64,000 nt of DNA, taken from Patescibacteria group bacterium. GTDB taxonomy: Bacteria; Patescibacteriota; Minisyncoccia; Phycocordibacterales; Phycocordibacteraceae. This document shows, piece after piece, positions 23,833-50,003 of the stretch. The stretch is taken from NCBI GenBank assembly GCA_038064695.1, contig JBBTSO010000001.1, forward strand, positions 85,932 through 149,931. The letters are read 5' to 3'. Both the position numbers and the translations under genes were made by a program. Under the pieces are notes generated by a model. It was not told the origin of the DNA. It was given only the letters and a program-made list of their open reading frames with translations, and did not search any database. The stretch's first letter is position 1. The number at the start of each line of letters is the position of its first letter.

Positions 23833-23873
23833 CCCTGTATACTAGACACTATGAATCCCGTTAGAATTTCTAG

Positions 23874-23907
23874 AAAGAAAAATTATCATATATGATAATT
23901 TTTCTTA
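23874..23907. promoter_or_regulatory. 32-bp perfect palindrome inside the ruvX leader (candidate operator)
   Basis: aagaaaaattatcatat|atatgataatttttctt. It lies between the inverted repeats at 23854-23870 and 23974-23987. Confidence 0.5.
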
Positions 23908-23986
23908 AAATGTTACCGTTGGAGCAAACTATCCAGAATGGGTACCCGATACACGCATGAATAACAAAAACCAAAATTCTAACGGG

Positions 23987-24385
23987 ATGAAGTGCGTTGG
24001 CATTGACTACGGAACAAAGCGCGTCGGGGTTGCGGTGTCGGACGAGGCGGGGAGACTCGCATTTCCTAAAATGACGCTCCCTAATGACAAAATGCTTATC
24101 AGCGACGTGGTTGCTTTTATAAAAAAAGAGAAAGCAGAGTGCGTCGTGGTGGGGGAATCTAAAAACAACCAGGGCCTGGAAAACCCCGTGATGCAGGGCG
24201 CGCGCGACTTCGCCAAAATGATAGAGCGTGAGACGGGGCTCACGGTTGTGTTTGAGCCAGAGTTCTATTCATCTCTAGAGGCGCGCCGTTTAATGGACGG
24301 CGGAGGCCAAGTCGATGCGGAAGCAGCTGCTATTATTTTAAATAGTTATCTTGCTAGAATAAATACCTATGACGATTTCAATTGA
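23987..24385 (+). CDS. ruvX: Holliday junction resolvase-like protein RuvX/YqgF
   Basis: MKCVGIDYGTKRVGVAVSD, a RuvC-like fold. Start taken at ATG 23987. Confidence 0.85.
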   Translation: MKCVGIDYGTKRVGVAVSDEAGRLAFPKMTLPNDKMLISDVVAFIKKEKAECVVVGESKNNQGLENPVMQGARDFAKMIERETGLTVVFEPEFYSSLEARRLMDGGGQVDAEAAAIILNSYLARINTYDDFN

Positions 24386-47942: not shown

Positions 47943-48026
47943 TAATAGGAAACAGTAATGAGTGAAGAGTAATCAGCGGTGAGTAATGAGAGATAGAAAT
48001 GAGTATCGTATAATGCAAAGATATGG

Positions 48027-48139
48027 ATCCCGTTAGAAATAACGGACTCCTAAAAGTTTTCATGTTTATTTTTATTAAAAAACTTAACCGAATAGGCGTG
48101 CGTAATAAAATTACGTTTACGTCCTATTTCTAACGGGAT
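48027..48139 (+). promoter_or_regulatory. inverted-repeat-bracketed 5' leader of the surface-protein gene
   Basis: atcccgttagaaat (48027-48040) pairs with atttctaacgggat (48126-48139). The downstream arm abuts the ATG at 48138. Same architecture as the ruvX leader. Confidence 0.45.
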
Positions 48140-50003
48140 GGAAAAAAAGAGCGCGCTTGAGCGCCTCGCGAAAAAATTAAACTCGCGCACCGACGGAGAG
48201 TTCCACGCGCGTCGCTCAACACTTTCCGCGGAAAGTACTACTCCCGCTCGGTCGTGGCAGAGTGAAAAGCCGGTCACCGCGCTTGAAACAGGTGGTCGTA
48301 AAAAAATGAAAAGACTGAGTTACCTAGAACTATTTTTTATTGGCTCAGTGGTCTTTTTTGTTATTGCTGGCGCGTCCGCCGCGTTCCTCTTCTTTTCGGG
48401 AAGCAACACGGTTTCAACGAGAAACGTAGATATTGCCATAAGCGGTCCGACTTCAGTGCGCGCCGGCGAAGTACTTCCACTCCAAATAGTGTTGACTAAC
48501 CGCAACTCGGTGCCGATGGAACTTACCGACCTCGTGGTTGAGTTTCCACCAGGCACGCGAAGCGAGAATGATGTCACGCTTGAATTGCCGCGTATTCGCG
48601 AAAGCCTCGGCACCATAAAACCAGGGGAGAGCGTGAACCGAACCGTGCGCGCCATTATGTTTGGACAGGCAGATCAAAATTTAGACATCACCGTTTCGGT
48701 TGAGTACCGCGTACCATCTTCAAACGCCATTTTCCTTGCTGAAGAAACGTACTCGCTCCCCATTAGCCAGTCGCCCGCAAGCATCACGGTGGAGTCGCTC
48801 CAAGAAATAGTGTCAGGTCAAGAAACCGCGCTCACGGTCACGGTCACTTCAAACGTGACCGAGGTGTTAGACAACCTTCTCTTAGTTGCGGAATATCCGC
48901 CAGGGTTTTCATTTAAATCCGCCTCGCCTACCGCGGTGACGGGGAGCAACACATGGCGCTTGGGCGACATAGAGGCGGGAGGAAAACGCACCATCACTAT
49001 TCGTGGGGTGTTTACAGGCGAAGATGGTGACGAGCGCGTGGTGCACTTCACGACGGGAACTGAAAATGGAAATGCAAAAGATGAAATTGCGGCGCCACTG
49101 GCAACGGGGGATGTCGCGTTGAAATTGGCAAAGCCATTTGTTTCACTTTCGCTCTCGCTCGACGGGAGTGTTGCAACGGAAAAGGTGGTCGTGCGTGGGG
49201 CTCCCGTTCGCGTGGACTTGCGTTGGGTGAACAACCTGCCCCAGCGCGCGCAGGATGTTGAGCTAGAGGTGAAATTAAACGGCGCTATTTTGGATAGAAA
49301 CAGCATCGTGGCGCAAAAAGGTTTCTGGCGCTCTAGCGACAACACCGTTATTTTCAGTCGAGAAACTGACTCTGCACTGAACGATGTGGCTCCAGGGGGA
49401 ACAGGAACGTATTCGTTTAGTTTTGCGTCACTTCCGTTTGAATCTGGAGTATTTAAAAACCCCGAAATAACACTCTCGGCAACGGTGCGCGCGCGCCGTA
49501 TTACCGAATCAAACGTACCTGAAACTATTGAATCTAAAACAACGTCGCGGGTGCTGGTGGCAACAGACCTTTCACTCGCAAACTCTCTTTCATACCTCTC
49601 GGGGAGCAAACCTCCCAAAGCAGACACCGACACCACCTACCTTGTCAGTTGGACAGTGAACAATACCGCAAACGCGGTGGCGAACGCGCAAGTAACAGCA
49701 GCGCTGCCGAGCTACGTAAAATTTGTTCAAGGGTCAACGAACGACGCTATTTCGTACAACTCAATTGGTGGCGTGGTGACGTGGACGGTGGGGGATTTGG
49801 AGGCAGGGCAGTCAAAAAATGCCACATTCCAGGTTACCTTAACCCCATCTCTTTCTCAGGTGGGGAATATGCCAACGGTGATTTCTGACCAGCGTGTCTA
49901 CGGGTTTGACCGCTTTACCAGAACTAACATAGAACGTTCTGCTCAGGCACTGACCACGCAGAGCGCCGGCGCTACACCGCAGCTGTCGTCTGTGGTACCG
50001 TAG
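48138..50003 (+). CDS. large membrane-anchored extracellular protein (hypothetical)
   Basis: TM helix at about aa 60-85, then about 530 aa of beta-rich Thr/Ser/Val-rich repeats. Confidence 0.5.
   Translation: MEKKSALERLAKKLNSRTDGEFHARRSTLSAESTTPARSWQSEKPVTALETGGRKKMKRLSYLELFFIGSVVFFVIAGASAAFLFFSGSNTVSTRNVDIAISGPTSVRAGEVLPLQIVLTNRNSVPMELTDLVVEFPPGTRSENDVTLELPRIRESLGTIKPGESVNRTVRAIMFGQADQNLDITVSVEYRVPSSNAIFLAEETYSLPISQSPASITVESLQEIVSGQETALTVTVTSNVTEVLDNLLLVAEYPPGFSFKSASPTAVTGSNTWRLGDIEAGGKRTITIRGVFTGEDGDERVVHFTTGTENGNAKDEIAAPLATGDVALKLAKPFVSLSLSLDGSVATEKVVVRGAPVRVDLRWVNNLPQRAQDVELEVKLNGAILDRNSIVAQKGFWRSSDNTVIFSRETDSALNDVAPGGTGTYSFSFASLPFESGVFKNPEITLSATVRARRITESNVPETIESKTTSRVLVATDLSLANSLSYLSGSKPPKADTDTTYLVSWTVNNTANAVANAQVTAALPSYVKFVQGSTNDAISYNSIGGVVTWTVGDLEAGQSKNATFQVTLTPSLSQVGNMPTVISDQRVYGFDRFTRTNIERSAQALTTQSAGATPQLSSVVP

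Follow-up and report, generated by a model that had tools for sequence, protein, structure and literature searches.

The Correia elements of Neisseria are roughly 100-150 bp long, end in terminal inverted repeats, are accompanied by a 2-nt duplication and are numerous, with many of the copies immediately upstream of genes. Miniature inverted-repeat transposable elements of bacteria (MITEs) such as Correia are co-transcribed, and their repeats are able to form an RNA hairpin. Here we describe two comparable sequences in a 64,000-nt stretch of DNA (the window) from a Patescibacteria group bacterium (assembly GCA_038064695.1, contig JBBTSO010000001.1, positions 85,932 to 149,931 of the forward strand), which are located at the start codons of ruvX and of a gene for a 621-aa DUF11/CLIPPER-domain protein. 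They share the size range, the inverted repeats, the 2-nt duplication and the possible RNA hairpin with the Correia elements, and their relatives are likewise numerous and in many cases sit directly upstream of a gene. In contrast to Correia, the Patescibacteria element seems to target the start codon itself (ATG-R-A) and to rebuild the ATG, its family spans many Patescibacteria lineages, and its putative partner is a GIY-YIG nuclease and not the transposase of a known insertion sequence. Both sequences are probably non-autonomous, MITE-like copies of a mobile family that is found across Patescibacteria, the candidate phyla radiation (CPR).

GIY-YIG homing endonucleases, whether free-standing or borne by introns, e.g. 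the Seg proteins of T4 and I-TevI, comprise about 200-250 aa or more, possess a separate DNA-binding domain and spread by allelic homing; I-TevI leaves 2-nt 3' overhangs. The long form of the Patescibacteria family is likewise a selfish gene built on a GIY-YIG domain, and 2-nt overhangs would fit its 2-nt duplication. However, the I-TevI and Seg genes have neither terminal inverted repeats nor a duplication, whereas the protein found here has 94 aa, represents the catalytic domain only and does not carry the tethered DNA-binding domain of a classical homing endonuclease. Its nearest sequence relatives with a solved structure are of similar size and belong to UPF0213/YhbQ and Slx1 (1ZG2, 1YWL, 7WME), but those are not known as mobile, repeat-bounded or multicopy. 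Because Slx1 is a structure-specific nuclease, the analogy suggests that a hairpin or cruciform of the arms is recognised by the nuclease.

IS200 (~0.7 kb) commonly serves as the yardstick for how small an autonomous insertion sequence can be, and the REP/REPIN-RAYT and IS200/IS605 systems rely on HUH/Y1 chemistry, leave no target duplication and reside in intergenic 3' regions. REP/REPIN-RAYT is similar in that a small nuclease-type protein acts in trans to mobilise short, non-autonomous repeats that form hairpins, as we infer for the present family, but the element described here measures about 0.28 kb and is found at start codons. To our knowledge, this long form falls outside every insertion-sequence family that the classes of ISfinder base on a DDE, DEDD, HUH, serine or tyrosine enzyme, and Penelope-like retroelements are the only established class of transposable elements known to us that uses a GIY-YIG endonuclease for integration. 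In contrast to our element, the latter occur in eukaryotes, are built around a reverse transcriptase and extend over kilobases (PMC8557442). In CPR bacteria, GIY-YIG open reading frames (ORFs) have been reported from insertions in rRNA genes that resemble neither group I nor group II introns and also differ in appearance from classical homing (PMC11270868), and GIY-YIG genes are listed among those transferred from Patescibacteria (PMC12455944). The rRNA-gene insertions involve the same organisms and the same nuclease family, but the published account does not contain inverted-repeat ends, start-codon insertion or short derivatives. The literature searched under the themes Patescibacteria/CPR, MITE, GIY-YIG and UPF0213/YhbQ holds no description of the arrangement; the whole family with its GIY-YIG partner and start-codon insertion thus appears to be undescribed there, and it is of high interest.

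Empty orthologous sites and rebuilt start codons

Four orthologous ruvX loci (L122-L125; proteins 72-78% identical) have the same neighbours as in the window, namely a DUF5652 gene on the opposite strand, ruvX and a tRNA_bind gene, and their intergenic spacers of 34-50 nt read gTATACT-N6-7-ATGAAG. The equivalent site in the window reads TATACT-agacact-ATGA[134 nt]GAAG. The situation is the same for the DUF11/CLIPPER gene, whose three orthologous loci (L129-L131; protein 70-80% identical) are flanked by recO and a tRNA synthetase gene (tRNA-synt_2b) and read TATAMT-N7-8-ATGG, compared with TATAAT-gcaaagat-ATGG[113 nt]GGAAAAAAAG in the window. The seven orthologous empty sites confirm a target-site duplication, which is GA at site 1 (ruvX) and GG at site 2 (DUF11). 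Because the orthologous loci are empty and a duplication flanks the window copies, we read both genes as ancestrally leaderless ones, each of which took an insertion after ATG+N with duplication of G+N. The terminal AT of the element and the duplicated G thereby form a rebuilt ATG that leaves the host ORF intact.

A preceding sequence-only reading of the window had reported inverted repeats around AT-rich DNA that end on the start codons of these two unrelated genes, and the repeats as well as the common arrangement proved to be real. The arms are perfect and 15 nt long at both sites, with 104 nt between them at site 1 (ATCCCGTTAGAATTT and AAATTCTAACGGGAT, 100% complementary) and 83 nt at site 2, and the ATG of either gene takes its A and T from the final two bases of the right arm. 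Further features had escaped the sequence-only reading: an ATG plus one base stands immediately 5' of each left arm, the same four bases recur at the right ends, and a -10-like hexamer is located 7-8 nt 5' of the first ATG. The 32-bp palindrome claimed for site 1 is indeed perfect (16+16 nt), but its coordinates had been set one base too wide on each side (23874-23907 instead of 23875-23906). Apart from sites 1 and 2 no further arm copies were found in the window, and six hits of the 10-mer at a tolerance of one mismatch versus 4.1 expected are alone not significant; chance does not, however, account for four exact 12-15-mers that form two inverted pairs, both of which end on a start codon. 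The features of both sites are as follows.

23838..23843, + strand: -10-like hexamer TATACT of the putative leaderless ruvX promoter in its ancestral state, 7 nt upstream of the original ATG; the empty sites L122-L125 share this hexamer at a distance of 6-7 nt from the ATG
23851..23854, + strand: original ruvX ATG and the first base (A) of codon 2, now cut off from the gene; empty sites read ATGAAG
23853-23854, + strand: left copy of the target-site duplication GA, site 1
from 23851, + strand: 14-codon upstream ORF (uORF) MNPVRISRKKNYHI, opened by the original ruvX ATG
23855..23988, + strand: element copy 1, 134 nt, non-coding, member of a 133-136-nt subfamily; absent from four orthologous loci
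23855..23869, + strand: left terminal inverted repeat of copy 1, core ATCCCGTTAGAA
23875..23906, + strand: internal 32-nt perfect palindrome (16+16 nt), the subfamily's conserved hairpin adjoining the left end
23974..23988, + strand: right terminal inverted repeat of copy 1, core TTCTAACGGGAT, ending in the AT of the rebuilt ATG
23987..24385, + strand: ruvX ORF, 132 aa, from the rebuilt ATG; homologues have 132 aa and align from this Met
23989-23990, + strand: right copy of the target-site duplication GA, site 1
48009..48014, + strand: -10 hexamer TATAAT, putative ancestral leaderless promoter, 8 nt before the original ATG; the empty sites L129-L131 have TATAMT, 7-8 nt and ATGG
48023..48026, + strand: original start codon ATG and G, site 2; the left copy of the duplication GG is 48025-48026
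48023..48133, + strand: 36-codon uORF (MDPVRNNG...TSYF) from the original ATG to the TAA of the right arm, ending 4 nt before the gene's ATG
48027..48139, + strand: element copy 2, 113 nt, non-coding, member of a subfamily with the CGAATAGG motif and the subterminal sequence TCCTAT; absent from three orthologous loci
48027..48041, + strand: left terminal inverted repeat of copy 2
48125..48139, + strand: right terminal inverted repeat of copy 2, ending in the AT of the rebuilt ATG
48138..50003, + strand: ORF of the 621-aa DUF11/CLIPPER-domain protein from the rebuilt ATG; homologues have 610-626 aa at 100% coverage
48140-48141, + strand: right copy of the target-site duplication GG, site 2

The two uORFs are the sole ORFs within the window copies. 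Both copies are hence short and geneless, they have terminal inverted repeats, a verified duplication and many dispersed relatives, and on these structural features of MITEs we regard them as new members of a MITE-like family.

The short-form family and its targets

The two-arm pattern consisting of ATCCCGTTAGAA, 85-115 nt and TTCTAACGGGAT was scanned in public genomes with one genome per species, and all counts are lower bounds. The sequence-only reading had proposed a search for further copies as a check, and these extend far beyond the source genome: at least 119 loci match the pattern and contain at least 126 copies, often several per 8 kb or per assembly, and several assemblies contribute more than one matching contig. 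We estimate that about 0.1 chance matches of the 24 specified bases would be expected in 596 Gb. Nearly all hosts among the matches listed are Patescibacteria, including Saccharibacteria, Kaiser-, Nomura-, Jorgensen-, Taylor-, Zambryski- and Vogelbacteria as well as Moran-, Yanofsky-, Lipton-, Sungii-, Levyi- and Kerfeldbacteria and Paceibacterota. Two copies reside on short contigs of bins that are labelled as lying outside this group, namely of metagenome-assembled genomes (MAGs) from Omnitrophota (L007) and Gammaproteobacteria (L022), which could reflect mis-binning or rare transfer outside Patescibacteria. A search for viral carriage returned no match in 2.9 million viral contigs, and Rfam reported only tRNAs and noise for the window (gathering threshold) and for the site and eight loci (E <= 10).

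The ends of 12-15 nt either stay the same or are altered jointly on both arms, while the interiors fall into many subfamilies. Relaxed matching revealed arm variants that are altered on both sides at once (position 12, G-C; position 2, C-G; triple changes in L087 and L044). Short subfamilies with a common interior are found before different genes in different genomes (clusters of 14, 7, 6 and 6), which is why we conclude that the short forms have spread as short forms. Copy pairs with related interiors have the same orientation relative to the gene in 95 cases and opposed orientations in six. Copy 1 aligns with the 133-136-nt subfamily (L027, L081, L062, L002), which has a conserved hairpin near its left end and maintains nine of the 31 predicted pairs via two-sided changes in this hairpin and in the extension of the terminal stem. 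Copy 2 aligns with the subfamily that has the CGAATAGG motif and TCCTAT, and TCCT is also present there in 55 of 63 long copies.

The junctions are equally uniform. ATG plus 1-2 bases stands at one side of 107 of the 126 copies, and 102 of these 107 show G plus the same base(s) past the other end. X is most often A (69 cases), followed by G (19), T (5) and CA (5), and the base that follows X outside the duplication is A in 115 of 122 copies. The target consensus read from the junctions is ATG-R-A and the duplication is G-N; a duplication of the whole ATGX or ATGXA is not required, and the element's A still opens the left junction in copies in which a base other than A follows X. Left-hand GTG, TTG, CTG and ACG variants may represent decayed ATGs.

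In 121 of the 126 copies (~96%) one end makes an ATG from which a long ORF starts (median length 224 codons), and more than 100 unrelated genes are located downstream. Selection alone on an ATGR or ATGRA target would predict about 50-57% at gene starts. ATGRA is present 34 times at gene starts and 26 times in intergenic DNA of the window, and the corresponding selection-only model predicts about 57% versus the 96% observed (p = 1e-23). Because selection against insertions into ORFs leaves only about 57%, intrinsic targeting or some further filter is needed. We also considered a targeting of transcription starts or leaderless genes and rejected it, as a -10 box 5-9 nt upstream is not enriched at insertion sites (45 of 107) relative to the window's long ORFs (33 of 86; p = 0.66).

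The long form and its proposed mobilisation

Elements of 279-287 nt with the same arms, usually ATCCCGTTAGAG...CTCTAACGGGAT, are filled by one ORF (L075, L076, L119, L114, L035). It encodes a GIY-YIG domain (PF01541, residues 9-75 of 94 aa, 61 bits versus a cutoff of 22.6). The only other matching models are T5orf172, MUG113 and GIY_YIG_2, which are all GIY-YIG-related, and no transposase of the DDE, DEDD, HUH, serine or tyrosine type was found between the ends. The NCBIfam model for group I intron endonucleases scores 18 bits, i.e. below its cutoff of 56, and the nearest solved chains are UPF0213 1ZG2 (E = 7e-10) and 1YWL (1e-4), with a weak match to SLX1 7WME (0.1). A search of proteins clustered at 90% identity retrieved at least 2,296 clusters, in most cases 93-95 aa long and typically MNPVRD...FLSLTG, the named sources of which are almost all Patescibacteria or its lineages. 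Among the best 120 of these clusters 97 start with MNPV(R/K) and 116 end with LTG. The GIY-YIG catalytic motif is present, with the columns Y-x-Y, YTG, DLRKR, YYE and KNR conserved to at least 95% in 102 proteins.

The terminal repeats are part of this gene. The left repeat codes for N-P-V-R and the right one for S-L-T-G. The ORF usually has its start at the host's original ATG in front of the element, and the TG of the rebuilt ATG together with X = A provides its TGA stop, which results in an ATGA overlap; the called nuclease genes of L126-L128 accordingly overlap the next gene by 4 nt. X is A in 57 of the 63 intact in-frame long copies versus 84 of 122 short copies (p = 9e-4), as expected if the long form needs the TGA stop. 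A metagenome scan for the long form provided at least 120 loci, and the counts refer to those listed: 117 of 120 are GIY-YIG-like, the nuclease frame is uninterrupted in 74 and contains stop codons in 46, the ATG is rebuilt in 111 of 119, the right flank is GAA in 92 of 119, and the downstream ORF has a median length of 246 codons. About a third of the long copies carry the nuclease in a frame other than that of the host ATG, and it then begins at an internal ATG 12-20 nt into the element (L132, L157, L164, L213, L251 and others).

Residue 6 of the nuclease covaries with residue -4 (D/S 79, A/A 10, G/P 2), in which we see the protein-level trace of a complementary change at repeat position 13. 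Together with the two-sided arm variants this argues that the ends function at the nucleic-acid level; the object under selection may be an RNA stem, a hairpin or cruciform in the DNA, or a pair of identical sites for protein binding. The arms have no convincing match to integron attC cores (GTTRRRY/RYYYAAC; the motif order is wrong here), Xer/dif sites or the 16S 3' tail.

Several variants of the long form were observed. Where X has two bases (e.g. ATGCA), the host ATG opens a 4-codon uORF, MQSR, whose stop is the TAG of the left repeat, 9 nt before the internal ATG. Two elements of 270-276 nt (L153:6094-6369 and L203:1045-1313) have long-form ends without GIY-YIG similarity. An ORF of the same GIY-YIG family lies inside different inverted repeats, CCCTGTTAAAT...ATTTAACAGGG, on the minus strand of L093:5230-5560, which suggests the existence of sister families whose ends and nuclease diverged together.

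According to the proposed mechanism, the GIY-YIG nuclease would make 2-nt staggered cuts and thereby mobilise the long form itself as well as, by acting in trans, the short ones; the window copies were probably mobilised in this way. For its own expression the long form would rely on the promoter, the ribosome-loading signals and the start codon of the host. Whether the ~280-bp form represents a new class of autonomous prokaryotic transposable elements and the smallest one known is, in our estimate, evenly balanced. Such an element would consist of one 94-aa GIY-YIG gene whose end codons are the terminal repeats; it would integrate specifically at start codons, borrow the host promoter and ATG and return the ATG via the ATGA overlap, and its short derivatives would now be the 5' leaders of many genes.

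Several observations weigh against this proposal. No matching nuclease was detected in the 64-kb window with tblastn, and action in trans from elsewhere in the genome has to be assumed. The interiors of the short copies exhibit no significant homology with the nuclease gene (nhmmer E > 10), and local alignments are only marginally better in sense orientation (p = 0.003); the derivation of short copies from the long form therefore rests on shared ends, geometry and orientation. The exact identity of the arms in the pattern scan is partly given by construction, since the pattern is exact. The 94-aa single-domain protein shows no obvious DNA-binding module, and its recognition of start codons over any ATGRA is unexplained.

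An alternative is an ordinary MITE that is moved by an unsampled conventional transposase (DDE or similar), with the GIY-YIG ORF as a passenger or unrelated occupant. The terminal inverted repeats and the short duplication (mostly 2 nt, between 1 and 3 nt) are those that one classically expects of a cut-and-paste element, we know of no GIY-YIG transposase in prokaryotes, and the missing interior homology with the nuclease gene points in the same direction. We nevertheless consider this scenario improbable. The fetched loci, about 0.9 Mb in total, revealed no other gene between the arms, no arm pair more than ~320 nt apart and no autonomous element of kilobase size with these ends. Moreover, the repeats are embedded in the first and last codons of the nuclease in thousands of clusters, which is unexpected for a passenger, and nearly all listed long-form loci (117 of 120) are GIY-YIG-like.

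The sequence-only reading had favoured a conserved cis-regulatory leader or a pair of operators, in which the arms hide the start codon in the mRNA or bind a regulator. Its structural part is plausible, because a 15-bp stem that holds the A and U of the AUG is predicted and the folds are stable (-46.7 kcal/mol, z = -6.5 at site 1; -43.4 kcal/mol, z = -4.8 at site 2); the complementarity of the arms is also kept through compensatory changes, and the uORF frame is stop-free in 34 of 99 family copies versus 9-15 for the other frames. A dedicated regulatory leader does not agree with the absence of the sequence from all seven orthologous loci, and paired operators conflict with the 2-nt duplication and with the more than 100 unrelated downstream genes. 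Furthermore, the interiors are unrelated between copies, Rfam yields no match, the same ends bracket a nuclease gene, and tandem or nested copies occur, and the explanation is accordingly very improbable. Just as improbable is a reading in which the long form spreads by homing only, as a free-standing homing-endonuclease gene, and the short copies are in-place decay products that never moved by themselves. In its favour, GIY-YIG homing endonucleases are well known, 46 of 120 long copies contain stops and forms of 31-136 nt exist. Against it, shared short interiors are found before different genes in different genomes, and insertion with duplication at more than 100 non-homologous genes indicates a transposition-like, non-allelic spread.

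If the GIY-YIG nuclease does mobilise the family, a class based on this enzyme would be added to the prokaryotic transposable elements, and the known minimum size of an autonomous element would drop to about 0.28 kb. Start-codon targeting combined with rebuilding of the ATG would be a way for a parasite to persist in a streamlined, 90%-coding genome while its genes are spared. This raises the concrete question how a 94-aa protein finds start codons. The elements also provide a simple sequence marker for the Patescibacteria lineage and might yield very small nucleases whose target is defined.

Likely consequences for the host genes, and minor forms

The elements alter the 5' ends of many Patescibacteria genes, since a leaderless mRNA would be converted into one with a structured leader and a uORF, and expression is probably affected. 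If transcription starts at the old +1, the mRNA begins with AUG-N and has a leader of 136 nt (ruvX) or 115 nt (DUF11), whose ends are predicted to form the 15-bp stem that takes in the A and U of the gene's AUG. This pairing is physically plausible according to the folding model but secondary, and any effect on translation would follow from the insertion. The old AUG opens a uORF of the type M-(N/D)-P-V-R..., with 14 codons at site 1 and 36 codons at site 2, where it stops 4 nt before the gene's AUG. The uORF frame may be open so often because it is left over from the nuclease frame or because termination beside the gene's AUG is selected for. Promoter-like sites are located inside both window copies and could give rise to transcripts without the left arm. 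The ruvX and DUF11 genes may remain expressed through an internal promoter or through translation that begins at the old 5'-terminal AUG.

Start-codon calls in public annotation are already affected. The RuvX entry (P0001, NCBI/ENA) has 142 aa and starts at an ATG at position 23957 inside the element (MNNKNQNSNG-MKCVG...). The closest RuvX homologues (P0002-P0011, 64-78% identical) all have 132 aa and align from the Met at 23987, from which we conclude that the insertion led to a wrong start codon in the public record.

Leaderless transcription seems to be common in the source genome, because a TANNNT hexamer precedes the ATG by 5-9 nt in 33 of 86 long ORFs in the window (~38%; e.g. 5323, 18568, 25387 and 62881) versus 8.6% of all ATGs.

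The short copies (L001-L119) contain strand-specific interior motifs, namely GGG(A) at +20 to +40, GTC(G/A)A at +50 to +80 and, at +70 to +80, an AGGAG that resembles a Shine-Dalgarno sequence. These motifs, whose reverse complements are rare, may represent relics of nuclease codons (YTG, RSRE) or cis-acting sites. ACGGGA at +20 to +40 is ~3-fold enriched in sense orientation only. Its interpretation as an internal copy of the right arm that offers an alternative pairing partner was rejected; it could be a relic of the YTG codons of the nuclease.

Tandem copies, in which a rebuilt ATG-R-A was struck again, are present in L006, L045, L083, L095, L097 and L149. Tandem or nested arrangements are located at L006:7672-7897, L045:6502-6722, L149 near 202, L170:2752-3023 and L036:7263-7576, and some nested cases have several arms inside one another. 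At the other extreme, forms of 31-83 nt (L107:2525-2555, L074:831-883, L015:4314-4393, L089:5719-5798) include some that are made up of hardly more than a loop between the arms. Some of these forms are located at start codons with a duplication, and they may have arisen by extreme deletion or have remained after excision.

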